A DNA stretch of 62,755 nucleotides, counting the filler, from Craspedostauros australis (taxonomy: Eukaryota), in NCBI GenBank assembly GCA_030167865.1. It is 16 parts of 16 records of this genome, joined end to end, with 100 filler letters (N's around TTAATTAATTAA, not from the genome) between each part and the next. Parts side by side here need not be neighbours in the genome. Positions count along the whole stretch, not along the records: positions 40,560 to 50,367 come from JALAGF010005412.1; 15 more parts are not named here. One strand, written 5' to 3'. Below are positions 12,850 to 50,703 of the stretch, piece after piece. Position 1 is the first letter of the stretch. Each line of letters begins with the position of its first letter. The notes beneath the pieces are model-generated. The model saw nothing but the letters and a program-made list of their open reading frames with translations. It did not search any database and was not told where the DNA came from. Made by a program: the position numbers and the translations under genes.

Positions 12850-12911
<62 letters not shown>

Positions 12912-13887: not shown

Positions 13888-13987
13888 NNNNNNNNNNNNN
13901 NNNNNNNNNNNNNNNNNNNNNNNNNNNNNNNTTAATTAATTAANNNNNNNNNNNNNNNNNNNNNNNNNNNNNNNNNNNNNNNNNNNN

Positions 13988-14031
13988 ATCATACCATGCG
14001 ATCATACCATGCGATCATACCATGCGATCAT
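13988..14031. repeat. 13-bp tandem repeat (ATCATACCATGCG)x3+
   Basis: Direct repeat at the scaffold start. Confidence 0.85.
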
Positions 14032-14701: not shown

Positions 14702-15324
14702 ATGGATGACAAGAAAAAACATGATGCGTCTGCTAAACTTCCGTCATCAATCCCTGCTGCCCCCTCTGAGCCAGTAGCGTCTGAAGCAGACATGCAAGCA
14801 GACATGCAAGCAGACATGCAAGCAGACATGCAAGCAGACATGCAAGCAGACATGCAAGCAGACATGCAAGCAGNNNNNNNNNNNNNNNNNNNNNNNNNNN
14901 NNNNNNNNNNNNNNNNNNNNNNNNNNNNNNNNNNNNNNNNNNNNNNNNNNNNNNNNNNNATGCAAGCCAACATGCAAGCCAACATGCAAGCCAACATGCA
15001 AGCCAACATGCAAGCCAACATGCAAGCCAACGTGCAAGCAGACGTGCAAGCAGACATGCTGGCTGAAACGCAAATGGAATTGCAAAGGGTTTTGCAACTG
15101 TTGCAAACTCAAACACCAGGAGTTCAAGGCAACCCTGATGAAAACACAAGGAATCAAGTCTATGTTCCAGTTGCAGAGGTCGTCCCTGAAAATGATGATA
15201 ATCCTGAACCATATTCTCGGAGGGCAGGATGGAGCTGGAAAGGTANTGTTACTGTGGTGTTACTCGTCGCCGGTGTAGCTGGTGCCATTGCAGCAGGCTT
15301 AGTGTTTCTCCAAAGTGACGAGAG

Positions 15325-15405
<81 letters not shown>

Positions 15406-15410
15406 AGATG

Positions 15411-15441
<31 letters not shown>

Positions 15442-15834
15442 AGATGGCAGCAGTAGTAGTCAGCCCACAGCAAACGGCCCTAGTGATCGGCCATCACAAA
15501 ATCCAACCCGCACACCCACAGATATACCGAGCGATCTATCCTCGTCGAACCCAACCCTCACACCCACGCATATACCGAGTGATCGACCCTCACAAAGTCC
15601 AACGCACACACCCACGGATATACCGAGTGATCTTCCCTCGTCGAACCCAACTCACATACCCACGCATATACCGAGTGACCTGCCCTCGTCGAACCCAACA
15701 TACAGCTTCGATCAATCGAATGCTTTCTTCACCATTTGGGAGGTGCTCCTGCCCACACTCCAAGAAGAGCCTACCTTCATCGATNNNNNNNNNNNNNNNN
15801 NNNNNNNNNNNNNNNNNNNNNNNNNNNNNNNNNN

Positions 15835-15918
<84 letters not shown>

Positions 15919-18103: not shown

Positions 18104-18531
18104 TTCACTCCAATGGTCTCAACACAACTGGCCAAGCTTATGAGCCCATTCAGTCACAAACCAACGAGTCACAGGGGGAGCAGTCTACTACTCCGCTCGG
18201 ACGAGTTTGCAGCACCTTGCCGGCTCGCAGTTCGGTTGGATGCCGTTCAGTGTTTTGGGAGCCGCGGCAATTTTGGAGAGAGCCCTTTGCAATGACGTTC
18301 CCGGCAAGCCTGACAGGTTGTCACGTTGCTGGACATGATGACGTGGGTTGAAATGTCTGCGACCTTTGAACTTTCTTCGAGCTCCTTTGTGCATACCATA
18401 TACTGAGTACCTTGGTGTGATACTACAAATTNNNNNNNNNNNNNNNNNNNNNNNNNNNNNNNNNNNNNNNNNNNNTTAATTAATTAANNNNNNNNNNNNN
18501 NNNNNNNNNNNNNNNNNNNNNNNNNNNNNNN

Positions 18532-20958: not shown

Positions 20959-23141
20959 TCATCGTCAACGTCGTCGTTTCTCTTTCGTTGTCTCGTCGTT
21001 GTTCCGTGTTCAGGTTTTGTTGAACCTGATGATTGATCGAATCTGATGGAATATTCACAACATATTTCATTCCTGTAGACCTGGTAGTTAAGGTCTCGAT
21101 GTGACGTCACGTGTGATGGATACTGTGGTATCCGCTGGTATCGCGGTATCCTGTCATCGTAGTATCGCAGTATCCTCGTGGTATCGCGGTGGTATTGCTG
21201 TGACGTCATAGTTTTGTGTCGTGATTCCGCCACCGAATAGTCTAGATGGCGGCAAGCAAGTGTGACTGATGCATACACATNNNNNNNNNNNNNNNNNNNN
21301 NNNNNNNNNNNNNNNNNNNNNNNNNNNNNNGTCGTGATTCCGCCACCGAATAGTCTAGATGGCGGCAAGCAAGTGTGACTGATGCATACACATCCGAGTA
21401 CACACATTCCGACAACCAGAGTCCTTGGTTCGGTTCGAGAGTAGATGGTGGAGGTGACGCGATGGTCGACTCCAGGCATCGCTACTTCATTCTCGATGAT
21501 GTCTCCGATGTTGAGGGGTTCATCCTCGTAGACGATCCCGTCGAAGAGATTGTCTTCGTCGGTGTAATCGTCTTCGTCGCTTGATGGGAAGTGCTCGCGG
21601 TTGATGGTCTCAACTGCAGCAACTGGGGGTCTGTAGTATCCGTACACACTCGGGGTGTGGGCCTCTCGTTCCTCTTCAGAGTACTCGACCTCTTCTTCGA
21701 GGTCGAGTCCGGTCATGTCTTCGTTGGTGGTTGCGAGGGCCATGTCGTTGATGGACGACTCGTAGTGCGCCATGTCGGTGGTGTTGATTGTTTGGTTTTT
21801 CTTGATGTTCGTGATTTCGTCGATTGTCACGATTCTTGGGTTGGTCACATTTTTGACCTCAACGGGGTCGGTTTCGAGCTCGTCGGTGGGGAAACACACC
21901 AATTCTTCGTTGTTGACCGACTTGTCTTCGTCGGGTAACCACATTGATTCATCGGTCATCACGAGATCGATTTCGTCTTCTTCGTCGTTAGCGGGCATCC
22001 ACATGGGTTCATCTACCACGACGAACGCGGCGTTGTCTGCCGCGGCGTCTTCGGGTANNNNNNNNNNNNNNNNNNNNNNNNNNNNNNNNNNNNNNNNNNN
22101 NNNNNNNNNNNNNNNNNNNNNNNNNNNNNNNNNNNNGGCTGCTCTCATCGCTGCCTTCAACTTGAAGCACTCGAGGATCTTGTGTCCCTTCTTACCGCAG
22201 TACTTGCAGTTTCCGTTGAACTTGGTCTTGTCTTCAGTATCACTTCTCTTGTTCTTCTTCGTGGGCTTGCCTCCTTTGTTCTTAGGCGCAGAGCGGCAGT
22301 CTGCCTTCTTGTGCCCGTAGGCACCACAGTTGCGGCAGTGGCCCTTGAAGCCACCAGTGGCGGCGAGTGCCATTTCTTCCTTGCTATTGTTCTCGCGCTT
22401 ACTACCTCCTTGCTTGATGTGACGTGCGTCGTAGGTTGCACTCACTGCTTCGCGGATGTCTTTGACAGTCATCTGCTTTTCGATGTTCTCGAACTTGAGC
22501 TCGATGAGCTTCACATCCATCTCGTAGTCCCTTCCGAGAGCGTTGAGCACGAGCATGTGGTACTGCTCCATGTCCATATTAACTCCCGCGTGCTTGAGGC
22601 GGTTACGGATCACCTCCATTTCGGTGAGGAAGGTATCCGGATGTTCGCCTTTCTTCAATCGCATCCCGTTGAGTTGAGCCAACAACTTTGCCTTCATTGG
22701 CGCAGTNNNNNNNNNNNNNNNNNNNNNNNNNNNNNNNNNNNNNNNNNNNNNNNNNNNNNNNNNNNNNNNNNNNNNNNNNNNNNNNNNNNNNNNNNNNNNN
22801 NNNNNNNNNNNNNNNNNNGTTTCATGGTTGATTGCCATGGTCAGTTCTTCAAACGCGTACTTGGCCAGAGCCTTCTTGTACTCCGCCTTCTCCTCGGGAG
22901 ACATGGCAGATAACTTTGAGGCCTTAAGCTTCTTCTCTTCACTTCCCGCGATGGAGGCGAGAGGAGAGGGGTCAAAGGTCTCGGTCTTCACAATCACATT
23001 ACCCAAGTCCTTGAGATACAAGTCTCCGTAACCCTTGCGGTTGGCACGGGCGAGGAACTTCGCACTCCAAGCTTTCCAGGAGGATCGCTTGCCGTCGAAC
23101 ATGATCATGTAACGATTGGTCTTACCAAGGAAGGACGTCAT
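20856..23141 (-). CDS. Copia gag with two CCHC zinc knuckles and a long acidic tail
   Basis: FDGKRSSWKAWSAKF, HPDTFLTEME, CRNCGAYGHKKADC, CKYCGKKGHKILEC. The frame beyond the N gaps is uncertain. Confidence 0.88.
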   Translation of the reverse strand: MTSFLGKTNRYMIMFDGKRSSWKAWSAKFLARANRKGYGDLYLKDLGNVIVKTETFDPSPLASIAGSEEKKLKASKLSAMSPEEKAEYKKALAKYAFEELTMAINHEXXXXXXXXXXXXXXXXXXXXXXXXXXXXXXXXXXXXXXTAPMKAKLLAQLNGMRLKKGEHPDTFLTEMEVIRNRLKHAGVNMDMEQYHMLVLNALGRDYEMDVKLIELKFENIEKQMTVKDIREAVSATYDARHIKQGGSKRENNSKEEMALAATGGFKGHCRNCGAYGHKKADCRSAPKNKGGKPTKKNKRSDTEDKTKFNGNCKYCGKKGHKILECFKLKAAMRAAXXXXXXXXXXXXXXXXXXXXXXXXXXXPEDAAADNAAFVVVDEPMWMPANDEEDEIDLVMTDESMWLPDEDKSVNNEELVCFPTDELETDPVEVKNVTNPRIVTIDEITNIKKNQTINTTDMAHYESSINDMALATTNEDMTGLDLEEEVEYSEEEREAHTPSVYGYYRPPVAAVETINREHFPSSDEDDYTDEDNLFDGIVYEDEPLNIGDIIENEVAMPGVDHRVTSTIYSRTEPRTLVVGMCVLGCVCISHTCLPPSRLFGGGITXXXXXXXXXXXXXXXXXXVYASVTLACRHLDYSVAESRHKTMTSQQYHRDTTRILRYYDDRIPRYQRIPQYPSHVTSHRDLNYQVYRNEICCEYSIRFDQSSGSTKPEHGTTTRQRKRNDDVDDEVNINEQHVSNVHGGARGLHQAMRARKRWIKRAS

Positions 23142-23220
23142 GGTGATGATGGTGAGAGTCGTTTGTTGCTGTGTTGGTGATGATGGAAACGTAGGATTTC
23201 AATCGTAACGTTTCGAAACG

Positions 23221-23548
23221 TGTTGGAAATCCGGGGTTAGTGTTAGTAAGAACTAATTGGTTGTTAGTCCGTACTATTCAGAACTGTGAGCTCATTCTCT
23301 TCAGCTCCTTTGCCTTTCGTTTCTTATATAGCATCTCCTGCAGCAGCATCGTCTTATACTGTTGCATTCATGCATCTCTTCATCATGAATCATCGCTTGC
23401 ATACATGAGATCGCATCCGCAGGCATCCTTGTCATGCACATCGTCGTGCATATCCGTAGGCATTCTTGCCATGCACCTTGTCGTGCATATCCTTATTCTA
23501 CACTCCCTGCGGTACGATTCCACAGTCTTGCGTTTCGCTCTTGATCTC
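23221..23548 (-). repeat. 5' LTR (partial) of Copia family A
   Basis: TGTTGGAAATCCGGGGTTA is identical to 1845-1863, and similarity starts exactly at this TG. It lies 80 bp upstream of the gag ATG. Confidence 0.8.
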
Positions 23549-25130: not shown

Positions 25131-26975
25131 CTAGTCGACAACATCATTGTGGCCCCGTTCTTTCGCAATGTCCAGTGCAGTCACGCCATCGTTATCTTTG
25201 ATGCTGATGTCTGCGTTGCACGATTCCACCAAGTACTTCACGACCTCCACGTTACCATGCCAACTTGCCCGACAAAGTGGAGTTTTGCCATCCTTGTTTT
25301 GAATGTTGACATTCGCGTTGCACGATTCCACCAAATACTTCACGACCTCCAAGTTGCCATTTGCGCTCGCAAGGTGCAGTGCAGGGCTGCCATACTGGCC
25401 GGTTTTGATGTTGATATCGACCTTGCCTTGTTCAACCAACGACTTCACAACGTCGAGATTCCCAGCAATGCTTACGCGATGGAGGACGGTGGAGCCATCC
25501 TCGTCTTTCACGTTCAAATCGACATTGGGTGTTCCGATGAGATACTTGACAATGTCGCTGTGATTGTTATGATGTGCCTTGAAGATTGGAGTCTCGTGTT
25601 TGTCGTTCTCAGCGTTGATATTGGCTTTGCCGGATTCAACCAGCCACTTCACAACATCGAGATGGCCATCGCCACTTGCGAGATGGAGCACGGTGTTACC
25701 ATCCTCGTGTCGGGAGTTGGGATGTATGTTTGGTGTTCCGATGAGATACTCGACAACATCGAAGTGGCTGTGGCAATATGCCTTGTAGAGGGGAGTCTCG
25801 CACTCATGATTCTCAGCATTGATATTGGCTTCGCCTTGTTCAACCAGCCACTTCACAACATCCAGATGTCCACCCACGGTTGCAAGATGGAGTGCAGTGT
25901 TGCCACCCTTGTTCTCAGCGCTGCCATCGATGTTCGCTTTGCCTGAGCCCACCAAATGCTTCACCAAATCCAGATGACCTCTAGCACTTGCGCAGTGAAG
26001 CAAAGTGTCGCCATTCTCGTCCTTGATATTGATGTCCACCTGTCCTGACTCCACCAACCATCTCACAACGTCCAGATGACGTTTGGAATATGCAGACTGG
26101 AGAGCCGTGCCACCAGCGTCATTCTCAACATGAACATCTGCCTTGCACGACTTCACCAGGTACTCTGCAACATCCAAATGACCATTTCTGTACGCAACAT
26201 GAAGTGCAGTATCGCCGTCATTGTTCTGGACGTCGATAGCCACAGCACGAGCCTCCATCACATACTTCAAGATATCAAGATGGCCCTTCAGACACACATT
26301 GTGGATCGCAGTATTGCCGAATTCATCTTGCACATTGATTTCCACTCCATGTGATCCAACGAGGTATTCCACAACATCCAAACGCCCATGAAGACACGCG
26401 GCATGGAGGGCATTCTCACCCTTCTCATCTTGCACGAGAGCGCTTGCAGAATATGACTCGATCAGAGTCTTCACGATGGCCGTATGCCCCTCGGTGCATG
26501 CGTCGTGGAGTGCCACCTTGCCGGAGTTATCCTGGAGGTTGACATCTGCAGTATGCGACCCGGCCAGGTATTCCACAACCTCGACGTTGCCCTGTGCGCA
26601 TGCATAGTGTAGCGCAGTCTCTCCATCCATGGATTGGGCATTGATGTCCGCTCCGCATGACTCCACCAACTGTTGGATCGTTGCAAGCTGGCCGTTGGAG
26701 CATGCGAGGTGGAGTACAGTCTTGTCGCGGTGATCCTTGATCGTGTCGATGGAGGTTTGTGGAAATGCCGCCTTCCACGCGGTGAGGGTGTCCACATCTC
26801 CTCGTTCTGCGGCGCGCAGGAGATCCTGGTCGGTGATGGTTGGCGGGGGTGCATCACCAGGGGTCGACTTGAGCGAAAGGAGAGATGAACATGTTGTGGT
26901 TTGTGTTGACGAAGCCTGGAGGTTGCGCAATGGTGAGGCGAAGAGCGCCACGAGTGGGGGACGGATGAAGACCAT
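25131..26975 (-). CDS. Ankyrin repeat protein (~16 repeats, 614 aa)
   Basis: Repeated GxTxLHxAxxxGHLDVVKYLV units; S/T-rich N-terminal extension. Confidence 0.93.
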   Translation of the reverse strand: MVFIRPPLVALFASPLRNLQASSTQTTTCSSLLSLKSTPGDAPPPTITDQDLLRAAERGDVDTLTAWKAAFPQTSIDTIKDHRDKTVLHLACSNGQLATIQQLVESCGADINAQSMDGETALHYACAQGNVEVVEYLAGSHTADVNLQDNSGKVALHDACTEGHTAIVKTLIESYSASALVQDEKGENALHAACLHGRLDVVEYLVGSHGVEINVQDEFGNTAIHNVCLKGHLDILKYVMEARAVAIDVQNNDGDTALHVAYRNGHLDVAEYLVKSCKADVHVENDAGGTALQSAYSKRHLDVVRWLVESGQVDINIKDENGDTLLHCASARGHLDLVKHLVGSGKANIDGSAENKGGNTALHLATVGGHLDVVKWLVEQGEANINAENHECETPLYKAYCHSHFDVVEYLIGTPNIHPNSRHEDGNTVLHLASGDGHLDVVKWLVESGKANINAENDKHETPIFKAHHNNHSDIVKYLIGTPNVDLNVKDEDGSTVLHRVSIAGNLDVVKSLVEQGKVDINIKTGQYGSPALHLASANGNLEVVKYLVESCNANVNIQNKDGKTPLCRASWHGNVEVVKYLVESCNADISIKDNDGVTALDIAKERGHNDVVD

Positions 26976-32578: not shown

Positions 32579-35500
32579 CACACATCATATGCGCGCGTCA
32601 GGACTGAACGTCTACGATCGCCTAATTGAACATCAGGGACAGCAGCGGGTCTCATCGGACGATATCAGCATACCACTGGAGAACCATGAAGGCAACACGC
32701 TCCGAATTCCCATCAGAAAGCCAACAGCCCACGAGATGGCGACGGCACGGCATATCATCATATGCGACAGACACCAGCGTCTACGACGCAATGCGGGTCG
32801 GGTCGATTTCAAGCGAATCTTCCGACACCTTCCACCACACGTGGTGGAGAAGACAATGGCGGCGTCCACTCAGCTGGCGGATACTCCGATCAAGGCAGAG
32901 TCAAGACTTATCCCGCGGCAGTATCGAGCGCAGCGAGCAGGAGTGCTGCAACCCAACAGAATCGACGGCAGAGTTGATACGGACACGTTCTTCTCTACCG
33001 TCCAGTCCATCAGGCACTACAAGTGCTTTCAGCTATTCTCGCACAACCAATCGAAATTCATCTGGGCGAAGCCACTGAACCGCGAGGCCATGGCGCCAGG
33101 GGCGCTCACGGATTTCATCATCCGCGTCGGCGCTCCGGATCTGCTCGTATCAGACAATTCGCAGGTGCAATCGGGCAAGGCATGGAAAGCGGTCACATCC
33201 CGCTATCTGATCAAGCATCAGTTCACTGTGCCCATGAATCAGAACCAGAACCACGCAGAACGGGCGATCGGCGATGTCAAGCGGCATGCATACCAGCTTC
33301 TGTGGGCCGCATCGGCTCCACTATCATTCTGGTGCTACGCTGTGCAGCACGCAATCGACGCATGGAATTACACGGCGAAGGCAAGCCTCCAATGGCGCAC
33401 TCCAATCGAGATCCTTCGTGGCAACACTCCCGATATCTCGATGTTTCGCTTCACGTTCTTCCAACCCGTCTGGTTCTTCGAACCCATGACCAAATTTCCC
33501 AACCATCCATTCAAGCCAGGGTACTTCCTTGGCATCGCATGGAACCACGGAGATCCATTCACCTACACTATATGGTCACCACGAGGCGACGACGTCACGA
33601 AGGGCACCGCGCTTGTGCGCAACATCGTCAAGCCGCGTGTCGTCGAAGACGCCGTTCCTCCACGCATCACAGACGCGGAAATCAGCCGCATCGCTCAACT
33701 GGATATCATTCACACCACTACGCGCGGCGAATCCGGCGAACGCGCCAGGACCAAGACTTTGCCGGCGGAACTCGCTCGACAGGTCCGTGAGGCCATCGAC
33801 GCGATTGCTGTGCAGTCAGGGGCGGCGGCGGGTCCACCGGAGCCGGAGACGCAGGAGGTCAGGGGCGTATCCGCTAACAACACGCCAGCAGGCACGGCTG
33901 ACCGATGGTTCGGTCAACCAAACATAATTCCCAACGACGGCGACATGCCGGAACATAATGCACACGGCGTCATCTCGGATGACGACGGCGACGCATCCAC
34001 GGATAACATCTCTGAGGAGACCGATGACTCCGAAGTCACGGCGATGCCAGACCCTCCGGAGCACCGCTCTCAGGGGCGTGAGTCCTCTCTCATTGAGAGA
34101 GAGCATGACGAGCTGTTCCGAAATCAGGTCGAAAACGAGAAATCTGACGACTTGGCAATCAACTCCATCCTCAGCCACGCATTCAGAGACGGACATCTAC
34201 ACTTCAACGTGCAATGGTCCAATACTGAAACGCAATGGTTCCGATATGACGTGATCCGCGCCGACCATCCCGAAATGGTAGCACGATACATCATTGACAA
34301 TGAACCACGACGCAACGGTCGACACAATCGACAATCGCAAGTCCTACTCAAATGGGCGAAACATGCTCTGCGAGCCATCAGGCGTAGAATCAGACGAATC
34401 GAGCAAACTCGAGTCTTCACAACGGATGAGAACAACAACATCATCATCATCAGACGAATCCGTCCAGGCAAGAAGAAGCCGAAACGAGATTACTTCGCCA
34501 CTGTATATCAATACGGTGTCGAGGTCCCACGCAACATGAAGCATGCATTGCAACTGGATGAAGCCAACGGGGATCATCAATGGAGAGACGCAGCGAAGAA
34601 AGAGATCGACGCATTGATCGAACTCGACTGCTTCACATTCCACCCACCGACATACCAACCACCAGCAGACTACCAGAGCACGAAACTCCGACTCATCTTC
34701 GCGGTCAAGCAAGATCTGCGACGCAAGGGGCGCTTGGTAGCAGGCAGGCATCTCATCGAGCTGGCGGACAACATCCGAGTCTACTCATCAACTGTCAAGT
34801 CGACAAGCGTCCGCATCCTTGATGCAATAGCAGATGCAAACAACCTGCAACAGCTATGTGGCGACGTCGGCAACGCATTCGTCAACGCGTACACCAATGA
34901 GAAGATCTACGCGACAGCAGGAAAGGCATTCGACGACAAAGAAGGACAGGTCATTGTGCTCAAGAAAGCACTGTACGGTCTTCAGTCGAGCGCTCAACGA
35001 TTCCATGCACACTTCGCCAATACTCTCTCATCAATGGGATTCACGCCATCCCGCCATGATCAAGATGTATGGATACAGCGCAGAGACAACTCTGGCTACG
35101 ACTACATCTGCACCCACGTGGACGACTTCAAGATAGTCGCCAAAGACCCAGATCAGTACATGAAAGCGATCCNNNNNNNNNNNNNNNNNNNNNNNNNNNN
35201 NNNNNNNNNNNNNNNNNNNNNNNNNNNNNNNNNNNNNNNNNNNNNNNNNNNNNNNNNNNNNNNNNNNNNNNNNNNNNNNNNNNNNNNNNNNNNNNNNNNN
35301 NNNNNNNNNNNNNNNNNNNNNNNNNNNNNNNACTGCATGACCAACATGTGCCCATGAAGAGCAAGGATCATCCGGAAACGGATGATACGCCACTACTAAC
35401 ACCTGACGAGCAACAGCAGTTCCAGCAGCTCATCGGCATGCTGAACTGGGTTGTACAGCTCGGACGTTTCGACGTCGCATTTGCCACCTCTTCTCTCTCA

Positions 35501-36220
35501 CGTTTCACATCTACACCACGAAAAGGGCATCTCACGAGAGCACTTAAGATATGGGGATACCTCAAGAGCAAATCCACGCTGAGAACCATGATTGACTCAA
35601 AGCCCATCGTATTCGAGAACTTCAATCCAGAATCGCCCAACCCGGAGATGGTTGCACAGATGAAGGAAGAGTACCCCGAAGCGGCTGAGGACATTGACGA
35701 TCAGGCACCGGCAGCGATATATCCTGAGATCCAGATGTGTGCATTCGTCGATGCAGACCACGCTCACGATCTGGTCACGCGGAGATCGAACACCGGCATC
35801 ATCATCTTCCTGGGGCGCACCCCTGTGCACTTCTCCAGCAAACGCCAGACATCAGTCGCGACATCAACATACGGAGCAGAATTCAACGCAATGCGCTCGG
35901 CAACCGAGGAAATCATTGCACTCCGATACACACTCCGATCTCTGGGAGTCACAGTCAAAGCGCCAACGATCACGTTCGGCGACAACAATGCAGTGATATC
36001 GAACACGACCATTGCAGACAGCTTGCTTCAAAAGAAGCACGTGGCAATCTCNTTCCACAGAGTCCGCGANGCGGTGGGAGCTGGAATCCTTGTCCCAGTC
36101 TATGTCCCATCGAAGCGGAACTTTGCAGATATGCTCACGAAAGCACTGGCAAAGCCAGAACTCACATCATTTGTCACAACTCTGTTCTATGCAGGTCTAC
36201 CTCGAGATCAAGGGGCGTGA
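32579..36220 (+). CDS. CoDi pol: integrase, chromodomain-like module, RT, RNase H (5' partial; frame broken by gap 35173-35331)
   Basis: VDTDTFFS, LVSDNS, QNQNHAERAIG, CGDVGNAF, KALYGLQSS, THVDD, FVDADHAHDLVTRRS, TSTYGAEF, NFADMLTK. Confidence 0.94.
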
Positions 36221-36324
36221 CAATTCTCACAGAATTCTTTGAGAAAATTCACTAACCAGGTCGTTTTGGAGGCCAAAGTCCACTAACCAGGTCGTTTTGG
36301 TGCCCGACACGATGATTGGATGAC
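36218..36324 (+). repeat. 3' LTR start (U3) of family C, with 20-bp direct repeat CACTAACCAGGTCGTTTTGG x2
   Basis: Follows the short purine tract AAGGGG. The pol TGA stop is the first three LTR bases. Repeats are at 36250 and 36281. Confidence 0.8.
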
Positions 36325-36424
36325 NNNNNNNNNNNNNNNNNNNNNNNNNNNNNNNNNNNNNNNNNNNNTTAATTAATTAANNNNNNNNNNNNNNNNNNNN
36401 NNNNNNNNNNNNNNNNNNNNNNNN

Positions 36425-38475
36425 GTCGAGAGTGTTTCACCAGGTATAGCAGCATGCCTACTCCACTTCGGTATCGGCTGTGTCGCTGTTCGTCCACCTT
36501 GGGTGCATTGCTGTTCCTTTGAATGCCCTGCCCTGGTGTTCCTGGTGTTCCGTATCGTTGTAGTTTCAGCACATCGCTCCCGAACGTGTCTATGATGTTC
36601 TTGAGGATGTGTGGTTGGTTCACCCAACAGTTCGTCTTGTCGTGGTTGAATATGATCTTGCAGCTCAGGTAGTCTTCGAGATCTTCCTCCACTTTGACCC
36701 CGAACCGTTCCGCTCGGATATCTTTCACGAGCTTCTTCAGTTCCTGCTTTTCTCCGATACAGAGACAATCGTCCACGTAGGTGCCGATCAAAAGCAGTTG
36801 CCCTTCCTGATTCCGAATCAGCAGGCATGGGTCTACCTCACTCTGTCTGAACCCCAATTTGAATAGGATGTCGNNNNNNNNNNNNNNNNNNNNNNNNNNN
36901 NNNNNNNNNNNNNNNNNNNNNNNTAGGATGTCGACGAGCTTCTTATTCCATTGTCTGGCACTCTGCACGAGTCCGTAGATGGTTTTCTTGAGCAGCAGGC
37001 ATTCATCCGTTTCGTGTTTCATGCCTTTCGGGCATTGCATATAGATCTCTTCGTCGAGGTCTCCATGCAAGAATGCTGTCTCAAAGTCGATGATGATGCT
37101 GTCTAGCTTCAGTATCATTTTCATGGTGAGCATGATACGGTAGGTTGCATCATGTATCACCGGTGCGTGGTGCGCTGAGAAGTCGACTCCTGCGATTTGC
37201 GAGTANNNNNNNNNNNNNNNNNNNNNNNNNNNNNNNNNNNNNNNNNNNNNNNNNNNNNNNNNNNNNNNNNNNNNNNNNNNNNNNNNNNNNNNNNNNNNNN
37301 NNNNNNNNNNNNNNNNNNNNNNNNNCCTTCTGGCCATATCGTAGAATTCCTTGTTGATGGCTTCTCGCCATTTCTTTCTCTTACTGGGGTCCGCGTGGTC
37401 CCAGCAGTCCTCGAATGTGGTTGGGTCCAGCAGCATAGCGATGCTCGCTATTTCCATCCCATCCTCATTCCGTTCGTTGTTCAATGCTTGGTCCACAGTG
37501 ATGATATCGTCGAGTCTCATCATTCCGTGAGGTGTATCTATCATCATACCTGCGATATCTCTGTTGAATGTTGACCCGTCCGCGTGGAANNNNNNNNNNN
37601 NNNNNNNNNNNNNNNNNNNNNNNNNNNNNNNNNNNNNNNNNNNNNNNNNNNNNNNNNNNNNNNNNNNNNNNNNNNNNNNNNNNNNNNNNNNNNNNNNNNN
37701 NNNNNNNNNNNNNNNNNNNNNNNNNNNNNNNNNNNNNNNNNNNNNNNNNNNNNNNNNNNNNNNNNNNNNNNNNNNNNNNNNNNNNNNNNNNNNTTTGGCC
37801 TCTTCATTAGCTCTCCCCTCATCGTCCCTTCCGAATTCGTCGCCGTCATTATCGTTCGACTCATTTTCCCCTTGGGTGGGAAGCAAGTCATCTTGCCCTC
37901 GCGCAGCGTCTTCTGTATCTTCTTTCTCTCCGGCTCTGCTGCTGCGATCTGCGTCGTCGGCCTCCNNNNNNNNNNNNNNNNNNNNNNNNNNNNNNNNNNN
38001 NNNNNNNNNNNNNNNATCGTCGAGTCTCATCATTCCGTGAGGTGTATCTATCATCATACCTGCGATATCTCTGTTGAATGTTGACCCGTCCGCGTGGAAA
38101 TCGGGTCCTCCTGTATCCGGTGGGGATGCGATAGTCTCTTGGGGTGTCTCGTACCCTTCGTCTGTATTTGGTTCTGACTCATCGCTTGATTCGAGGTCTC
38201 GCTCCTCCTCTGGGATGGGTTCTTTGTTGTACCCTGCGAGAGCACTCACCATCCTCGGTACGCGTTGCACAGGTTCTGCGATAGGGGTCTGCTNNGGCTC
38301 GNNTTTGGCCTCTTCATTAGCTCTCCCCTCATCGTCCCTTCCGAATTCGTCGCCGTCATTATCGTTCGACTCATTTTCCCCTTGGGTGGGAAGCAAGTCA
38401 TCTTGCCCTCGCGCAGCGTCTTCTGTATCTTCTTTCTCTCCGGCTCTGCTGCTGCGATCTGCGTCGTCGGCCTCC
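36425..38475 (-). mobile_element. Copia family A INT-RT linker and RT fragment
   Basis: DPTTFEDCW..WREAINKEF, DFETAFLHG, YGLVQSARQW, YVDD; closely similar to 2741-4250. Confidence 0.93.
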
Positions 38476-40559: not shown

Positions 40560-40695
40560 TTCACCATCTACCAGTATTCTAAATTGACTACTTGTGGAAC
40601 AGAAGACTCTCGTCCGGATCGCTTGCCAGTCAAGCCTCTGCCTACAGCTAAAGAACAGCCAACAAGACAACAGCCATTACGTTTGGGCTCTATTA
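40560..40695 (+). mobile_element. Right end of a second copy of the hAT-like MITE
   Basis: Nearly identical to 41572-41708, with identity ending exactly at GGGCTCTATTA. Confidence 0.75.
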
Positions 40696-41180
40696 AGGGT
40701 CGCTGGCATGTCCGTTCTGGATGATCTGCTTGATCTGGATTCCTTCTTCTGCTGCGGACTGCGGTTGAGCAGGCGTTGGACATTCTTCCTCAGCTTGCCT
40801 GGCGACAGCGACATCGACTTGTTGCCGGACGATGAGGAGGAGGCTACTGTTCTGCTGCTTCTGGGAACAGCGCCATGGTGGGTTGGCATGGTACTGCTGC
40901 TGCTGCTACTTCTTTTGGTGCTAGTGGAGCTGTCCTGTTCTGATGGATGTAGCAGTGGATGTAGCAGTGGATGTGGATGATTGAGAAGTTATGAGGTTGC
41001 CGATGTTGCCGATGTTGTTGCTATGATGCTGTACGGCTGCTGTACGACTGTTGTTCCACTTGGTGGCCAACTTGATGGTCAGGTTGAAGTGTTGGTGCTG
41101 ACGTTCCAGAGAAGGAAGGAAGGAAGGAAGGAGAGCGATGCGTCTCTGTTTGGCTCTGCGTTCGCTGGTGTAGCAGCAGC

Positions 41181-41708
41181 TAATAGAGCTAAACTAGTAA
41201 CCACCTTAGCGAGAGAGACTACGAATCATCCGACTCGTCAGCATTCCAGTAGATCGAACGGACACTTCGCCGAACCCCACGTTTGGAGACAGATCCAGAA
41301 CCTTGAAGCGGATCTTCGGAATTCGTGTCAAGGAACCAATGGGGTTCCGATAACCAAGTTTCTGACACCCGCTGTCGCCAAAACACCGACGCACGGAACC
41401 AAAGCCACAACAACGGGCATCATCGCCCATTGTCTCTCACAGAACCCAGATGACGGATCTCGACCCACGGTACTCGGGCTACACAACCCACACGCATTGT
41501 CAAACAGGACACCACAGGAGATTCCCCTCGAAGAGAAGAACCATAGCACTAATCTCATAATCCGCACGTTTCTTCACCATCTACCAGTATTCTCAATTGA
41601 CTACTTGTGGAACAGAAGACTCTCGTCCGGATTGCTTGCCAGTCAAGCCTCTGCCTACAGCTAAAGTACAGCCAACAAGACAACAGCCATTACGTTTGGG
41701 CTCTATTA
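41181..41708. mobile_element. Non-autonomous hAT-like MITE (528 bp)
   Basis: TIR TAATAGAGC / GCTCTATTA. The 8-bp flanks GCAGCAGC and GCAGCAAC match at 7/8. The second copy fixes the right boundary. Confidence 0.75.
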
Positions 41709-43687
41709 GCAGCAACTCGTGCGAAGCAATGGACCAACTCCGATCCAATTCCTCTGATCGCAAGACCGGATCTCGATGCGGCAGATCAGGCAATTCAGCA
41801 CCTTCCGTGAAAGATTCGATCGCTGAGGATAATTGAAGGAACGAGAACGGCAATGAGGCCCACAGAGATGGACATTGACAGAATACAGTAAGCACACAAG
41901 CACACAAGTACGCGATGAACAGACAAAGACTTGTGTGAGTTGGGAAGTGGCGGACGCTTGCACCAATACGAATCGTGCGTGGGTATGTGCGTTCGTTCGA
42001 GTCTGCGGAATGCCATGACCCGCGGATGTTGTCAACGCCATTGTCGATGTCTCCTCACTGCGCTGCCCTGTGCTGCAACAACCGAACCGTCTCTGCTCCT
42101 CGTGGTGTGGGCTGTACGAGTCGGCTGTGAACCACTCGGTCTTGCTCGTTGGCTGTCTTGCTGGCCTGTCTTGGTGTGTTCTTACCTCAGCGGATCTCGC
42201 GTTGTTGGCTGCTGACCTTGTCGTGTTGGTATGGATAGTACGCTGTGTTGTTGGGATGCAATGGGATGGACGATGACGACGATGGTGATGGTGGCAATGA
42301 TGGTGGCAATGGTGGTGGCAACGGGAGAAGTGGTTGGAGTCTTCGCGACTACGAGTATGAGAACTTCTGAGTGGAGGGTGCGATGTTATGATCGGTAAAC
42401 ATGTCTTTGTCGATTGTGGATGAAGTGTGCATCGTTGCCGTTCTTGTCGTTCNNNNNNNNNNNNNNNNNNNNNNNNNNNNNNNNNNNNNNNNNNNNNNNN
42501 NNGAGGGTGCGATGTTATGATCGGTAAACATGTCTTTGTCGATTGTGGATGAAGTGTGCATCGTTGCCGTTCTTGTCGTTCTTGTCGCTGTTGTCTCTGT
42601 TGTTGTTGTTGTTGTTGCTGTTGTCCTCCTCTCCCTTCTTGTTCGTTGCTTCTTGGCCTCGCTGCTTCTTGTTGCACATCGTCAACAACCCACAATTTCG
42701 AAAATCCGTCTTGTCCCTGTCTCATTCGCTGGTTGCGCTTCGTTGGCATTTCTCCATAGGCGCATTGGTCCGTACTGCATGCCATGGTTGGAGCTCCGTG
42801 TTTGTACACGCAATTGGGAGAGTTGCCATGGTGGCAACATGACGAGCAGAGTACTGCTGTCACAATCAATCAATCATCTCCGAAGCACCGCCCACCCGTC
42901 CACCGCACCATCTGACGAGCGCTGAGCTTTGGCAATGTTGGCAACGCCGCAGACTGCACCATAGACTGCACCACAGACTGCACTACAGACCGAGTCATAG
43001 ACTCCATCGCAATCTGCAACAGAGCAAACGCAAAGGCCAATACCAACGTTCACACTCGTATGTACAGAGTAACCATGTTGTGTCGCGACATGGGTTATGA
43101 GCGTTAATTTCTTGTGTTCATGCAGGGTGTGGACTGGCTTCGTGGTTCGATTCCGCAGCGCGCTATTTTGACACAGTTGCAGTGGGGTACGACGATCCAT
43201 GCATGACGCCAACGGATACCACCATCCTTTTCCACACAATTCCTTCTGTACAACTCCTTCCACATCATTGAAACCAACGAACGCGGAAACCACTTGATTG
43301 GCGACGACGACCACGGCGACAACAGCGGTGGCCAGACCATCGTCGTCATGCCGCACTGTCCAATGATGCTGTATGGTACACCAACGTGCTGTTCACCAAC
43401 CAGGATCATCTGCTGCTCAGCGACATGATCATCAGAAATGCATTGGCCAAAGAGCATACCTTTCTGTCCAGCCAGTCAGGCTGTGCTGCGCATGATACGG
43501 TCGTGCATAGAACAGCATGCTGCGCGAGTCACCAAAGGCAAGATCCAAGATTTGCCGGGCGCACCATTGGATGTATCACTGATAACTAGCTTACGAAATA
43601 TGGTGGAGTGGTTACTTCTCTGATTACAGCCTATTCATTTCCTCTTCTTCATGACGCGCTCACTTCTCTGTCTACTGTTGTTGTGAT

Positions 43688-45866
43688 TCACTCCTCTTCT
43701 CCAGCGGCAGCGCCATCGGCCTCAGCCACCCTGGAAGGTGCGACGGACCGCACGAGGTTCATCAACGTTGTACGATTCATGTATGAATCCACTTGCGCAG
43801 TACCCTCACTTTCATCCACGACCTTGTACAAATCCATCATGGACATGGCACTGTACTCATCATCAACTTCATTGTTTGCCGCTCTCCCACTGCAGATGGC
43901 ATGAATGCCTTCAATCAGTCGAGGATGTAGAATCAGCTTGCTGCAATCTTCACGAGCGAGTAAAGTCTGCATGTTTCGAGCTGCCATTCTCGTTGCTGCA
44001 TCCTTCAACACCACGCAGTTGTGTTGATCAGCGAAGATCAACGCATCTACCATGGTGTCTTCTGTGAGATGAGTGCGGGCCAACTCTGCTTCAAGAACNN
44101 NNNNNNNNNNNNNNNNNNNNNNNNNNNNNNNNNNNNNNNNNNNNNNNNNNNNNNNNNNNNNNNNNNNNNNNNNNNNAGTTGGCTGGTCAGCGCCATCATC
44201 ATCGTCATGAGCGCCATCGCGGGTATCAGTATCGTTGTCCGGAGTGCTGTGATCGAAGGATATCTCACCTGTGTAGATGCATTCGAGGACACGTTGGACA
44301 TGCTTGGGTTGATGGTTGGGAAGAGGGATGAGCCTGCGGGTGAGGGCAGTGGCAGAATCAGTGCCGTCATCAGTGCCGTCATCGACATGCTGANNNNNNN
44401 NNNNNNNNNNNNNNNNNNNNNNNNNNNNNNNNNNNNNNNNNNNNNNNNNNNNNNNNNNNNNNNNNNNNNNNNNNNNNNNNNNNNNNNNNNNNNNNNNNNN
44501 NNNNNNNNNNNNNNNNNNNNNNNNNCGAACAGCGCTGCGACGATCTTGGTCGATGCTGATGTTGGTTGTTGTGTGGATTTTAGGATTGTTGTGCTTGGTT
44601 GGTGTTGTGATGGTGTTTGTGTTGCTTTGCTTGCGCACCTGCGTCTCTGTTTGCAGCTGTGTCTGCAGTTGCAAGTTGCGACGACTGAGATGACCGAGAC
44701 GCTTCATGATTGATGTCATCATCTTGACCTGCTTGTTCGCNNNNNNNNNNNNNNNNNNNNNNNNNNNNNNNNNNNNNNNNNNNNNNNNNNGGGATGAGCC
44801 TGCGGGTGAGGGCAGTGGCAGAATCAGTGCCGTCATCAGTGCCGTCATCGACATGCTGATGTTGGATTCCCGAGTCGATCAATGTCTGAATGGACGGAAC
44901 AGTGACCATGAGGACTCCGGAGTTTGCTTTGATTGGCTGTTGTTCGTCGCCTTGTCCGCACAGGAAGGTGGTGTCTGCCTTGGCCTCAGACCGAACAGCG
45001 CTGCGACGATCTTGGTCGATGCTGATGTTGGTTGCTGTGTGGATTTTAGGATTGCTGTGCTTGGTTGGTGTTGTGATGGTGTTTGTGTGGCTTTGCTTGC
45101 GCACCTGCATCTCTGTTTGCAGCTGTGTCTGCAGTTGCAAGTTGCGTTGACTGAGATGACCGAGACGCTTCATGATTGATGTCATCATCTTGACCTGATA
45201 TTCCGCTTTGATTAATTCGACGGGTGTTTTGTTGTCGTTGTTTTGGATGTCGATATTGACCTTGGCTGATTCGATGAGGTACTTGACGCATTCAGAATAG
45301 CCGCCGGCGCATGCTCGATGGAGTGGAGTGTCGCCATCGTTGTTCTTGCAGTTGACATCGGCGTTGCATGTTTCGATGAGGTACTTGACACACTCCAGGC
45401 TGCCATAGTAGCATGCTCTATGAAGTGGAGCGTAGCCATCGTCGTTTTTGCAGTTGACATCGGCGTTGGCTGATTCGATGAGGTACTCGACGCATTCAGA
45501 ATGGCCTTCAATGCATGCATCGTGAAGTGGAGTGTTGCCACCTTTGTTCTTGCAGTTGACATCGGCGTTGCATGTTTCGATGAGGTACTTCACACACTCC
45601 AGGCTGCCTTTGCTGCATGCTGTATGAAGTGGAGTGTCGCCATCGCCGTCTTTGACCTTGTTGACATCGGCGTTGGCTGATTCGATGAGGTACTTCACAC
45701 ATTTCAGGCTGCCTCCAACGCATGCTTTATGAAGTGGAGTCCAGCCACAGTAGTCTTTGACCGTGTTGACATCACGTCCTTCATTCTGCTCCTTCCATTC
45801 CTTCAACACCGACAGATCACCTCTCTTGGCAGCATTAAGGAGTTGTTTGTTCGAGACATTCGGCAT
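43688..45866 (-). CDS. Ankyrin repeat + BTB/POZ-BACK protein (putative Cullin3 adaptor)
   Basis: About 6 TPLHxAC ankyrin repeats, BTB-like ADTTFLCG..IKANSGVL..VLECIYTG, BACK-like VDALIFADQHNCVVLKDAA. ATG at 45866. A segment is duplicated across gap 44741-44790. Confidence 0.85.
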
Positions 45867-46094
45867 GTTGGTCGTTGGTTGTTGAGCTGTTGGTAGACAA
45901 ACAATTGCTGGATGATTGCTCAATGTGTTCACGGTCTTATGATGAAGATGCTGACTGATGGTATGAGACCAAACTGTTGCAAGGAATAGCAAGGTTGTTG
46001 TTGTCTTGTTCGCACGTTCTGTTTCTCTGTTCCATGATTGCACTCTTGTTTGTCGTGGAAGAGGTGGTTGGTGCGGATCCTTCTCGACATCCAC

Positions 46095-46264
46095 TGACAA
46101 TTCTCACAGAATTCCTTACTTCTTACTCTTCTACTAATCCTATTAGTCAAATACTGGTCGGGGGCTGTCTTCGGACAGCACTCACAAATAAACAACAAGA
46201 GCTCCGACCAGGGCACGAAACAACGGGCCAATACATCTTTCGTAGTTACTTGCACTGTTTGACA
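46095..46264 (+). repeat. 5' LTR, 170 bp
   Basis: TGACAA...TTTGACA. The first 20 bp equal 36218-36237, and the 3' two thirds resemble 50607-50703. AATAAA is at 46187. Confidence 0.85.
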
Positions 46265-46294
46265 GATTAAGAGTCGTGCTTACCAACACTGAGC
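46265..46294 (+). promoter_or_regulatory. Primer-binding site complementary to the 5' half of tRNA-Lys(CUU)
   Basis: GATTAAGAGTC complements GACUCUUAAUC (nt 30-40 of typical eukaryotic tRNA-Lys CUU). Downstream TGCT, TACC and ACTGAGC complement the D arm. Confidence 0.8.
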
Positions 46295-46333
46295 AACACC
46301 ACACCACCTTTCACCATCTTACGAGTTGCCACC

Positions 46334-47731
46334 ATGGACCGACCAACCAACATCAACACCTTCAACAAGATCATCCAAGAGCTGGTACAGCTCGATGACG
46401 AGGAGATGGCGTTCATCGGCGAGAAACTCGGGAGAATCAATCGTGTCATCCGCAATCCGGACATCACAATCGTGGCAGCTTTGGCGCTCTCGCCAATGCT
46501 GTCATCAATCAACATCACAAACATCCTCCGCATCTTCGCGTACGCGCGAGCCAACACCATCACTGCACGCACCGATTGGGCAGCAATCGACTTGTTCAAC
46601 GAAGCGAACAGCTACGATCCATCGGCAGTCGGCACGCCAGTTGCGAACGCAGCTGCTCAAGTGCGATCGGAAATGGCGATCAGGGAGGCAGCCGCAGCAG
46701 CGGATGCCACTGGAACCGCGGGTCGCGAAATCACCGCCAGCTCACCGAGCCGCGCGAGACGCACCCCACGGTCACCACGAACCCCACGGACTCCATCAGG
46801 ATGGAAGTTCGACAAGATCAGCATGCCAGAGGCACCTGAGTTCACCGGGAACAACAGCAACTGGTATGACTGGAAGATCGCATTCAAGCGGCAGCTGGTC
46901 ACATCCAGATACGCCGCGTACCTCGAAGTTGACAAGCCATCACACTTCAGCGCGGAGATCGATGCACAGCTCTACACTGTCCTGCACACCAAGACAGAGA
47001 AGGGGTGCGCAGCATTCATCGTGGAAGCGCATGACCCGAACGGCCATGACGCATACCAGGTGCTCGTACGCAACTACGAGTCCGTCGACCACAAAGCTGA
47101 GGCCATCGCAGAAGAAGAACAGAAGATCGCCGAGCTCCGTTACGACGGATCAGAGCCCTTCCCAGTCTTCGTCAATGACTTCTCCAAATGCATCCGTGTC
47201 ATGGAGCAGAACGGAAAGCAGATGACCGACCAGCAGAAGATCGCGAAGTTCTTTCGCAACATTACCGACGATCGCTTCACAAGCGAGATGTCCAGATTCC
47301 GTAACACGGAACAATCCTTCAACACAATCCGCGAGGCATTCATGCAACATGATGCGCTACTCACGAAGTCGGAAGGACACTACTCTCCCAAGCGCAACCG
47401 TCGCTACCAGCAGAAGGACAACAAGGACGATCGCAAGAGGCCACGCGAATCCTCCAAGTGGGATCGCAAGGGCGCCGCATCGTTTCGGTTGCCGGACTCC
47501 GTCTTCCGTCGCATGCCGGTGAGCACTCAAGTGCTCCTCGTCGAAGCGTCTCGTCACTTCCGCACCACGGGGAAACCAATCGATGAGGAAACCCTCAAGC
47601 GCAACAAGCCAGCAGACTATGCGCGCAACCTCGAGTTGCCCATGACCCAGCGAGGGCCCAAGCGGCCTCGCACGGGCGATCACAAGACCAGACGATCCGG
47701 CACCCAAGGACCATGGAACGCCGGTTCTTGA
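46334..47731 (+). CDS. CoDi gag (465 aa)
   Basis: GCCACCATGG start; PEFTGNNSNWYDWK, NGHDAYQVL and LRYDG gag-like motifs; lies directly after the PBS. Confidence 0.85.
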   Translation: MDRPTNINTFNKIIQELVQLDDEEMAFIGEKLGRINRVIRNPDITIVAALALSPMLSSINITNILRIFAYARANTITARTDWAAIDLFNEANSYDPSAVGTPVANAAAQVRSEMAIREAAAAADATGTAGREITASSPSRARRTPRSPRTPRTPSGWKFDKISMPEAPEFTGNNSNWYDWKIAFKRQLVTSRYAAYLEVDKPSHFSAEIDAQLYTVLHTKTEKGCAAFIVEAHDPNGHDAYQVLVRNYESVDHKAEAIAEEEQKIAELRYDGSEPFPVFVNDFSKCIRVMEQNGKQMTDQQKIAKFFRNITDDRFTSEMSRFRNTEQSFNTIREAFMQHDALLTKSEGHYSPKRNRRYQQKDNKDDRKRPRESSKWDRKGAASFRLPDSVFRRMPVSTQVLLVEASRHFRTTGKPIDEETLKRNKPADYARNLELPMTQRGPKRPRTGDHKTRRSGTQGPWNAGS

Positions 47732-50367
47732 CAATCAAAGACGGGCACAACTCGCCGTCAGTCGGAGATTGTCATCCACCNNNNNNNNNNNNNNNNNNNN
47801 NNNNNNNNNNNNNNNNNNNNNNNNNNNNNNGGGCGAGCGTGACGACCGCAGCGGGAATGCCCGGACGTGCACGTCCGGTGGCACCACAAGAGTCCCGTCC
47901 GTGCACAACCCACCTGACAGTGGAGCATTGCATCCGAAGGGCGAGAGTAACGAACAATAGCCAAGGCTTTATCATCCTAGACTCAGGGGCGGACGGAGAC
48001 ATCGTTCATGCGTCGGGCTGGGAGGTGACCCACACACACCAACAAGAGTTTCGTGCCCGAGGGGCGACGATCAACTCACCAATCGAGACATTCCAAATGG
48101 TCGACGCGGTGGCAGCATACGAGCCCCCATCAGGCGGCGTGATCCTCATCAAAGCGAACTACGTGGCTCTCGACAAGCATCCACAGCAGACGGAATCACT
48201 GTTTAACACACATCATATGCGCGCGTCCGGACTGAACGTCTACGATCGCCTCATTGAACATCAGGGACAGCAGCGGGTCTCATCGGACGAAATCAGCATA
48301 CCACTGGAGAACCATGAAGGCAACACGCTCCGAATTCCCATCCGAAAGCCGACAGCCCACGAGATGGCAACGGCACGGCATATCATCATATGCGACAGAC
48401 ATCAGCGTCTACGACGCAATGCGGGTCGGGTTGATTTCACGCGAATCTTCCGACACCTTCCACCACACGTGGTGGAGAAAACCATGGCGGCATCCACTCA
48501 GCTGGCGGATACTCCGATCGAGGCAGAGTCAAGACTTATCCCGCGGCAGTATCGGGCGCAGCGAGCAGGCGTGCTGCAACCCACCAGAATCGACGGCAGA
48601 GTTGACACGGACACGTTCTTCTCTACCGTCCAGTCCATCAGACACTACAAGTGTTTCCAACTATTCTCGCATCACCAATCGAAATTCATCTGGGCGAAGC
48701 CACTGAGCCGCGAGGCCATGGCGCCAGGGGCGCTAACGGACTTCATCATCCGCGTCGGCGCTCCGGATCTACTCGTTTCAGACAATTCGCAGGTGCAATC
48801 GGGCAAGGCATGGAAAGCGGTCACATCCCGCTATCTGATCAAGCACCAGTTCACTGTGCCCATGAATCAGAACCAGAACCACGCAGAACGGGCGATCGGC
48901 AATGTCAAGCGACATGCATACCAGCTTCTGTGGGCCGCCTCGGCGCCACTCTCATTCTGGTGCTATGCTGTGCAACACGCGATCGACACATGGAACTACA
49001 CGGCGAAGGCGAGCCTCCAATGGCGCACTCCAATTGAGATTCTTCGCGGCAACACTCCCGACATCTCGATGTTTCGCTTCACGTTCTTCCAACCCGTATG
49101 GTTCTTCGAACCCATGACCAAATTTCCCAACCATCCANNNNNNNNNNNNNNNNNNNNNNNNNNNNNNNNNNNNNNNNNNNNNNNNNNCCGCTATCTGATC
49201 AAGCACCAGTTCACTGTGCCCATGAATCAGAACCAGAACCACGCAGAACGGGCGATCGGCAATGTCAAGCGACATGCATACCAGCTTCTGTGGGCCGCCT
49301 CGGCGCCACTCTCATTCTGGTGCTATGCTGTGCAACACGCGATCGACACATGGAACTACACGGCGAAGGCGAGCCTCCAATGGCGCACTCCAATTGAGAT
49401 TCTTCGCGGCAACACTCCCGACATCTCNATGTTTCGCTTCACGTTCTTCCANCCCGTNTGGTTCTTCGAACCCATGACCAAATTTCCCAACCATCCATTC
49501 AAGCCAGGGTACTTCCTTGGCATCGCATGGAACCACGGCGACCCATTCACCTACACCATATGGTCTCCACGAGGTGATGACGTCGCGAAGGGCACCGCGC
49601 TTGTGCGAAACATCGTCAAGCCGCGTGTCGTCGAAGACGCCATTCCTCCACGCATCACAGATGCGGAGATCAACCGTATCGCTAAGCTCGATATCATCCA
49701 CACCACTACGCGCGGCGAATCCGGCGAACGCGCCAGAGCCAAGACATTGCCGGCGGAACTCGCTCGACAGGTCCGCGAGGCCATCGACGCGATTGCCATG
49801 CAGTCAGGGGCGGCGGCGGGCCCACCGGAGCCGGAGACGCAGGAGGTCAGGGGCGTATCCGAGAATAACACGCCAGCAGGCACGGCTGACCGATGGTTCG
49901 GTCAACCAAACATAATTCCCAACGACGGCGGCATGCTGGAACATAATGCACACGGCGTCATCTCAGATGACGACGGCGACGCATCCACGGGTAACATCTC
50001 TGTGGAGATCGATGACTCCAAAGTCACGGCGATGCCAGATCCTCCGGAGCACCGCTCTCAGGGGCGTGAGTCCTCTCTCATCGAGAGAGAGCATGACGAG
50101 CTGTTCCGAAATCAGGTCGAAAACGAGAAATCTGACGACTTGGCAATCAACTCCATCCTCAGCCACGCATTCAGAGACGGACATCTACACTTCAATGTGC
50201 AATGGTCCAATACTGAAACGCAATGGTTCCGATATGACGTGATCCGAGCCGACCATCCCGAAATGGTAGCACGATACATCATTGACAACGAACCACGACG
50301 CAACGGTCGACACAATCGACAATCACAAGTCCTACTCAAGTGGGCAAAGCATGCACTGCGAGCCATC
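47732..50367 (+). CDS. CoDi pol: protease, integrase, chromodomain-like module (3' partial)
   Basis: IILDSGADGDIV protease and DDE integrase. The junction with gag is obscured by gap 47781-47830. Confidence 0.9.
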
Positions 50368-50467: not shown

Positions 50468-50703
50468 GATATGCTCACAAAGGCATTGGCGCGGCCAACA
50501 CTAACCACTTCCGTCACAGCTCTGTTCTACAGGGGTCATCCTCAAGATCAACAGGTGTGACAGCTTTCACTGTACATCTTACCTTTTTACTATTCGTATT
50601 AATCGGAAATACTGGTCAGAGATCGTCGTCGAACGACTCACAATACAACAACAAGAGCTCCGACCAGGGCACGCAACAACGGGCCAATACGTCTTCAGTA
50701 GTT
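50468..50703 (+). mobile_element. 3' end of a sister family C element: RNase H C-terminus and 3' LTR from 50558
   Basis: DMLTKALARPTLTTSVTALFY aligns with 36128-36190. The TGA stop is again the LTR start. Shares CAACAAGAGCTCCGACCAGGGCACG with the 46095 LTR. Confidence 0.85.

Follow-up and report, generated by a model that had tools for sequence, protein, structure and literature searches.

Positions 46265–46279 of the window (the whole stretch of DNA analysed, 62.7 kb of small scaffolds strung together through N44-TTAATTAATTAA-N44 linkers) very probably form the minus-strand primer-binding site (PBS) of a Copia element that has a chromodomain and is of the diatom CoDi-A type. To judge from its sequence, the partner of this site in tRNA-Lys(CUU) is the anticodon stem-loop and not the 3′ end. 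The broader reading, a putative primer site for the interior of a tRNA, is well supported.

Priming would proceed as follows. The anticodon stem would be cut in its 3′ strand, leaving a tRNA-Lys fragment with a 3′-OH at nt 40; this fragment would anneal to 46265–46279 and prime minus-strand synthesis, and the reverse transcriptase would extend it directly into U5. The clade as a whole would prime in this way, having moved between tRNAs whose nt 30–40 differ by one or two bases. Priming by a tRNA fragment, inferred here, is established for Drosophila copia and yeast Ty5, both of which use an initiator Met half as primer (cited in passages of PMC5371799).

The element and its boundaries

The element and its PBS lie on the piece 40560–50367, which has inner gaps; the pol ORF contains two N50 gaps and is cut off by the scaffold end (Table 1). 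The gag-like ORF matches TYA weakly (E 0.042, 13.3 bits, below the cut-off of 22.9), and a protein search with it returned no homologue of near length. The protease–integrase (PR–IN) part of pol is not recognised by Pfam. It has homologues with up to 57% identity, three of which (P0003, P0005 and P0007) carry PF07727 RVT_2, the Copia-type RT family; a cluster look-up of homologues P0003–P0007 gave no names, and no Pol relatives were found in a search of viral contigs.

A second copy of the element's family, for which the 5′ LTR and PBS are absent because its scaffold begins inside pol, contains RVT_2 at 34380–35171 (E 7.7e-15; 55.6 bits, where the cut-off is 31.6), within an ORF that ends at 36220. 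With RVT_2 taken from this copy and from the homologues, the domain order is gag–PR–IN–RT; the element is therefore a Copia element, as the initial annotation had called it. The long open ORFs and the 96–97% identity of the second copy suggest recent activity. The element may be inactive; the assembly is gapped and pol is truncated.

Within pol, 300 nt at 48828–49127 are repeated with 99% identity at 49188–49487, on either side of an N50 gap; the repeat is most likely an assembly artefact and not a real duplication.

Table 1. Coordinates of the element, of related sequences in the window and of Ile-type sites in other loci. Positions are those of the window unless a locus is named.
Feature	Position	Strand	Remarks
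5′ LTR, 170 bp, TGACAATT...TTTGACA	46095..46264	+	Start TGACAA; end set by alignment A3
Putative PBS core GATTAAGAGTCGTGC	46265..46279	+	Complementary to nt 26–40 of tRNA-Lys(CUU)
Imperfect tRNA D-arm complement	46280..46294	+	TTACC..ACTGAGC vs GCTCAGT..GGTA
Gag-like ORF, 465 aa	46334..47731	+	Gag ATG at 46334
Pol ORF	47713..50367	+	Protease motif LDSGAD, integrase, chromo-like domain; ended by scaffold end
Chromo/chromoshadow-like domain	50122..50367	+	C-terminal to integrase; alignment A4, 13 sequences
Second copy of the element's family	32580..36220	+	Mid-pol to pol stop; tblastn, 96–97% aa identity
3′ LTR start of second copy	36218..36237	+	Same 20 nt, TGACAATTCTCACAGAATTC, as from 46095 onward
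LTR fragment, next small scaffold	50558..50703	+	81% over 147 nt; enters gap
Ile-type sites	L007 4357; L010 4018; L012 3650; L014 243; L015 1096; L019 599		

The module that follows the integrase is common to 12 relatives (for instance at 3551–3748 of L001), where it lies between integrase and RT. Its AF2 model has a pLDDT of 86.8, and the top Foldseek matches are all to HP1, Rhino or CBX, in each case to a domain of the chromo or chromoshadow kind (E from 4.8e-3, TMt 0.7–0.78). Pfam Chromo matches relative L001 weakly (E 0.0073, below the cut-off). A hint of the host comes from an Atlas cluster in which Bacillariophyta is the commonest phylum, although just six of its members have an assigned phylum.

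A chromodomain at the integrase C-terminus was reported by Llorens et al. (2009) for the diatom CoDi-A clade (PMC2774666). The domain therefore serves here as a classifier and is no discovery, and we rejected it as a novel feature; its place after the integrase fits that clade. Compared by description, CoDi-A resembles the window element in being branch-1 Copia, in its integrase C-terminal chromodomain and in its marine relatives (PMC2774666, PMC2806351).

The 5′ LTR's terminus at 46264 was placed by homology because the scaffold stops inside pol and holds no 3′ LTR of the same copy. The start TGACAA is common to the window element and to all relatives with a visible LTR, L001, L002 and L025 among them. 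The first 20 nt of the LTR, TGACAATTCTCACAGAATTC, occur at 46095 and a second time at 36218, where the pol ORF of the second copy ends. On the small scaffold that comes after the element's own, an LTR fragment has a Copia pol end (..DMLTKAL..) upstream of it at 50468–50559, and the 68 nt at 46180–46247 recur at 50636–50703 with 90% identity. The U5 motif GGCCAATACATCTTT is common to the window LTR and L002.

In the metagenome relative L025 the two LTRs (TGACAAAGG...TATTA) are both present, together with a target duplication of 5 bp, GGCAC. Immediately after the 5′ LTR comes GATTATGAGACCGA, whereas flank sequence comes after the 3′ LTR. In a junction alignment of eight elements the common sequence is A/GATTA..AG.C, the stroke marking the junction. 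Both the LTR pair of L025 with its duplication and the eight-element junction agree with an end at 46264. A longer LTR, ending elsewhere beside a TGG site, had been named as the case that would overturn the initial annotation, and it is therefore unsupported.

Several details of the LTR ends can be added. The pol stop codon TGA coincides with the first three LTR bases at 36218–36220, at 50557–50559 and at about 7372 of L025, and the purine-rich tract caagggg directly before the 3′ LTR sits within the end of the pol coding sequence. Beyond 36237 the 3′ LTR of the second copy is entirely unlike the 5′ LTR from 46115 onward, and 36238–36324 has two direct copies of the repeat cactaaccaggtcgttttgg; this divergent stretch could belong to another LTR subfamily or to a chimeric scaffold end.

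The primer-binding site and its tRNA

The 30-mer GATTAAGAGTCGTGCTTACCAACACTGAGC at 46265–46294 (plus strand) occurs a single time in the window even when up to three mismatches are allowed, and none of 100 shuffles matched it; there is one copy of the PBS in the window. Directly upstream of the 30-mer is TGTTTGACA. The site abuts the LTR end and no TGG precedes the gag ATG at 46334, which bears out the earlier statement that this is not a PBS of the 3′-CCA type. When 46265–46330 was scanned with Rfam, no tRNA was matched even at E values as high as 10, the only match being a chance one to Xist_exon4, and among the papers listed for the motif in print none concerns a retrotransposon PBS.

To find the tRNA, we scanned viral contigs with the first 15 nt of the 30-mer. 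The scan gave 31 loci; identity over 15 nt follows from the construction of the search, and the result consists in the hits being Lys tRNAs in that register. The match falls within a tRNA gene in two of the 31 loci, L040 and L044, both called tRNA-Lys(ctt) by ARAGORN. One of them lies on a contig of a giant-virus MAG and the other on a further viral contig; neither is a host tRNA. In each, the reverse complement of 46265–46279 ends 6 nt past the first anticodon base, i.e. at nt 40.

The first 11 nt of the PBS core are the complement of tRNA-Lys(CUU) nt 30–40, GACTCTTAATC. The initial annotation had these 11 nt pairing with nt 40–30, and the complement is indeed exact in both viral-contig genes. 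Its further claim that a cleaved tRNA-Lys is needed also stands as a prediction: the match to the anticodon arm stops at nt 40, and the primer would therefore be a cleaved tRNA fragment with a 3′-OH at that nucleotide.

Relatives of the element were collected in one scan of metagenome contigs with the PR–IN alignment, which gave 32 loci, none of them with the Lys motif; ARAGORN found no tRNA genes in these loci (L001–L032) and none in the window. The junction A/GATT-NNN-AG, where NNN is the anticodon complement, is present in eight elements, namely six relatives of Met type, one of Asn type and the window element with Lys. The Met type has the sequence GATTATGAGAC[TC]GA (6/32 loci: L001, L002, L009, L016, L025 and L027) and the Asn type, in L026, has GATTAACAGTCTCG. 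A perfect hairpin, TAAGCTT-TCATC-AAGCTTA, lies in L026 directly after the 14-nt PBS core, at positions 79–97.

Six further loci carry an Ile type, GTTTATCAGACCCAT, which precedes the gag ATG by about 25 nt (Table 1). This 15-mer is the complement of tRNA-Ile nt 26–40 with C opposite position 34. These loci form a sister group of marine Copia elements. A C opposite position 34 is expected for inosine-34; for Bianca, C opposite position 34 and an inosine-34 tRNA-Ile were described by Neumann et al. (PMC6317226). In the remaining 19 of the 32 loci this kind of site is absent. The majority have too little upstream sequence to include it, whereas L006 and L030 have enough and lack it all the same.

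The cores of the relatives recur in tRNA genes of viral contigs, in six tRNA-Met(cat), in 16 tRNA-Asn(gtt) and, for the Ile type, in three genes, of which one is Ile gat, one Ile tat and the third was called Met cat. Wherever a core matches a tRNA, the match ends 6 nt past the first anticodon base (nt 40), and the 11-nt cores of the four types (Met, Asn, Ile and Lys) are only 1–2 bases apart. The tRNA of the relatives' Met type, with its A/U-containing stem, we take to be an elongator-like tRNA-Met and not the initiator.

The D-arm complement and the rival readings

Beyond the core, the stretch 46280–46294 was compared with the D arm by local alignment of tRNA nt 1–25 against the 40 nt that follow the core, with shuffles and window 40-mers as controls. 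With L044 the alignment GTT-GCTCA(GT)GTTGGTA scores 20; 42 of 20000 shuffles did as well or better, as did 11 of the 21974 other 40-mers in the window. With L040 the score is 17 (162 of 20000 shuffles, 182 of 21974 40-mers). If the 30-mer's reverse complement is taken as an unbroken tRNA, 2 nt are missing between D stem and anticodon loop, and any pairing past the core must therefore be discontinuous. The D-arm complement also speaks for a fragment that takes in nt 10–25, and so for a 5′ half rather than a short piece of the anticodon arm.

Seven relatives of Met and Asn type, compared with 6 and 8 tRNAs, gave no significant complement to the D arm, since between 629 and 2960 of 3000 shuffles scored equally; this negative result is a soft one because the tRNAs compared were non-host. 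The extended, discontinuous PBS of the initial annotation thus stands in part. The D-arm complement exceeds chance and is discontinuous, as proposed, but the extension is absent from the seven relatives, and its function as part of the PBS is therefore unproven. The complement is real as sequence and appears to be no conserved requirement of the clade. Most likely it was left behind when the reverse transcriptase copied more of the primer than the core, or else it serves as an auxiliary contact.

That it is a trace of copying is plausible, if somewhat short of an even chance. In that case plus-strand strong-stop synthesis would have over-read the tRNA-Lys fragment, and a copy would have been fixed past the core that is now neutral and decaying; the over-read copy may date from the lineage's switch to Lys. 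Consistent with this, the extension is confined to the one Lys-type element and has the form of an imperfect tRNA copy with indels, while the Met-type cores agree over 14 nt (nt 27–40), stop exactly at nt 27 and diverge afterwards. A reverse-transcriptase stop at a modified G26 would give such a 14-nt core, ending before position 26. The weak point is that a single element cannot show decay.

Rather unlikely is a functional extended PBS, in which the 5′ half (nt 1–40) would also pair through its D arm with 46280–46294 and would need this contact for initiation. The complement, beyond chance as it is, does lie beside the core in the right order and orientation, and Ty1 and Ty3 are known to have a bipartite PBS with extra tRNA complementarity outside the core (PMC5371799). 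These two elements use an intact tRNA 3′ end, whereas in the window element the additional pairing would be with a fragment's D arm, and the relatives do not share it (PMC5371799 for Ty1/Ty3). Besides the negative result in the seven relatives, obtained with non-host tRNAs, the exact D-arm 15-mer is found in 27 viral-contig loci, none of which is a tRNA, and the local fold of the leader RNA is unremarkable (z = 0.98).

The core itself could be a decayed, unused PBS of Asn or Met type whose match to Lys is an accident, as a single base separates it from the Asn core and two bases from the Met core, cores of the different types being 1–2 substitutions apart, and as the Met type is the common state (six of the eight junction-aligned elements). 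We regard this as very unlikely: the GTGC beyond the 11-mer fits the Lys stem of L040 and L044 and not the Asn or Met stems, and the long open ORFs and the closely similar second copy point to recent activity. Self-priming as in Tf1, or chance similarity, with no tRNA involved at all, is hardly credible, since nothing in the LTR could pair with the site (no inverted repeat joins the LTR to 46265–46294, and the only two pairs found are both elsewhere), and since the same register recurs in seven relatives and three other anticodons occur.

Priming from an internal fragment of tRNA-Lys(CUU), the reading that we prefer, might be part of a wider rule. We offer only tentatively, and with more doubt than confidence, the proposal that the marine chromodomain Copia clade primes from fragments cut after nt 40 and uses ANN-codon tRNAs (Met, Ile, Asn and Lys) only. 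The four putative primer tRNAs all have U36-A37-A38. The ANN-reading tRNAs also share the t6A37 modification, and the fungal Arg and Lys primers as reported fit the same ANN rule. Were the rule to hold, the loop type would be recognised by the enzyme that makes the cut or by the reverse transcriptase of the element, or the elements would hop between tRNAs by 1–2 changes in the PBS; the 14-nt core would be set by the reverse-transcriptase stop at modified G26, and the 30-nt Lys stretch would be the fresh footprint of a primer switch.

Known systems and surrounding sequence

Half-tRNA priming of Copia elements and an internal tRNA-Lys PBS in fungi are known already, and the window presents a further case. 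Donnart et al. (2017) described for FunCo1, of filamentous ascomycetes, a PBS ATTAAGAGTCT that is complementary to an internal region of a D. melanogaster tRNA-Lys gene (PMC5445492). With this PBS in print, the claim of novelty for a Lys-primed Copia element fails; the initial annotation was wrong in knowing of no described Copia element primed by a Lys half. As in the window element, the PBS of FunCo1 comes right after the 5′ LTR, and 10 of the 11 bases of its printed sequence are identical to 46266–46275 (PMC5445492); the comparison covered the PBS. FunCo1 differs in its fungal host and in a register that is apparently one base shorter at the 3′ end, and the passages on it report no D-arm complement or chromodomain, unlike what is found in the window element (PMC5445492).

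In plants, half-tRNA priming is restricted to lineages of Ty1/copia (Neumann et al. 2019, PMC6317226): Osser, Bryco and Gymco-II use 1/2 tRNA-Met, and Bianca uses 1/2 tRNA-Ile. Together with copia and Ty5, these elements resemble the window element in the cut within the anticodon stem, in a PBS that abuts the LTR without TGG and in the restriction to Copia. These elements use Met or Ile, whereas the window element has Lys(CUU) and the hosts concerned are marine and diatom-like. For elements of the diatom type, a literature search that covered the main texts of Maumus 2009 (PMC2806351) and Llorens 2009 (PMC2774666) found no description of an internal-tRNA PBS; in these two main texts the word ‘tRNA’ has no occurrence.

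The part worth following is the clade-wide use of four ANN-reading tRNAs in one register, with cores 1–2 substitutions apart; four tRNAs that end at nt 40 provide a natural series for the study of cut site, PBS length and primer switching. As a route of reverse transcription, half-tRNA priming has received little study, and we know of no nuclease that makes a half-tRNA primer. Stress nucleases cut within the anticodon loop and are not known to cut after nt 40; the resulting fragment would be too short to reach nt 40. The tie between transposition and stress-induced tRNA cleavage that the initial annotation raised gains no support from the analysis.

Diatom Copia elements were reported to be stress-activated (Maumus 2009, PMC2806351). 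In P. tricornutum, Rogato et al. observed tRNA fragments of 30–35 nt that are enriched under iron starvation, as well as ‘D loop/anticodon’ fragments of about 19 nt (PMC4247016); one supplement of that paper contains no tRNA-Lys sequence. P. tricornutum thus offers a system in which to test whether transposition is linked to tRNA cleavage; at present this is a lead only.

The window is a collection of unplaced scaffolds and is repeat-rich in character. It contains at least four Copia fragments of other lineages, at 2741–4228 (−), 8612–9796 (+), 18484–23141 (−) and 36369–38252 (−), with matches to RVT_2, Retrotran_gag_2, Pol_BBD and SH3_retrovirus. The 5′ regions of other Copia families at 8281–8640 and 23100–23548 (−) have no clear LTR end or PBS. 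Ankyrin-repeat ORFs are present at 25131–26975 and 44580–45866, and ORFs with LRR/PT repeats lie within 12383–18103.
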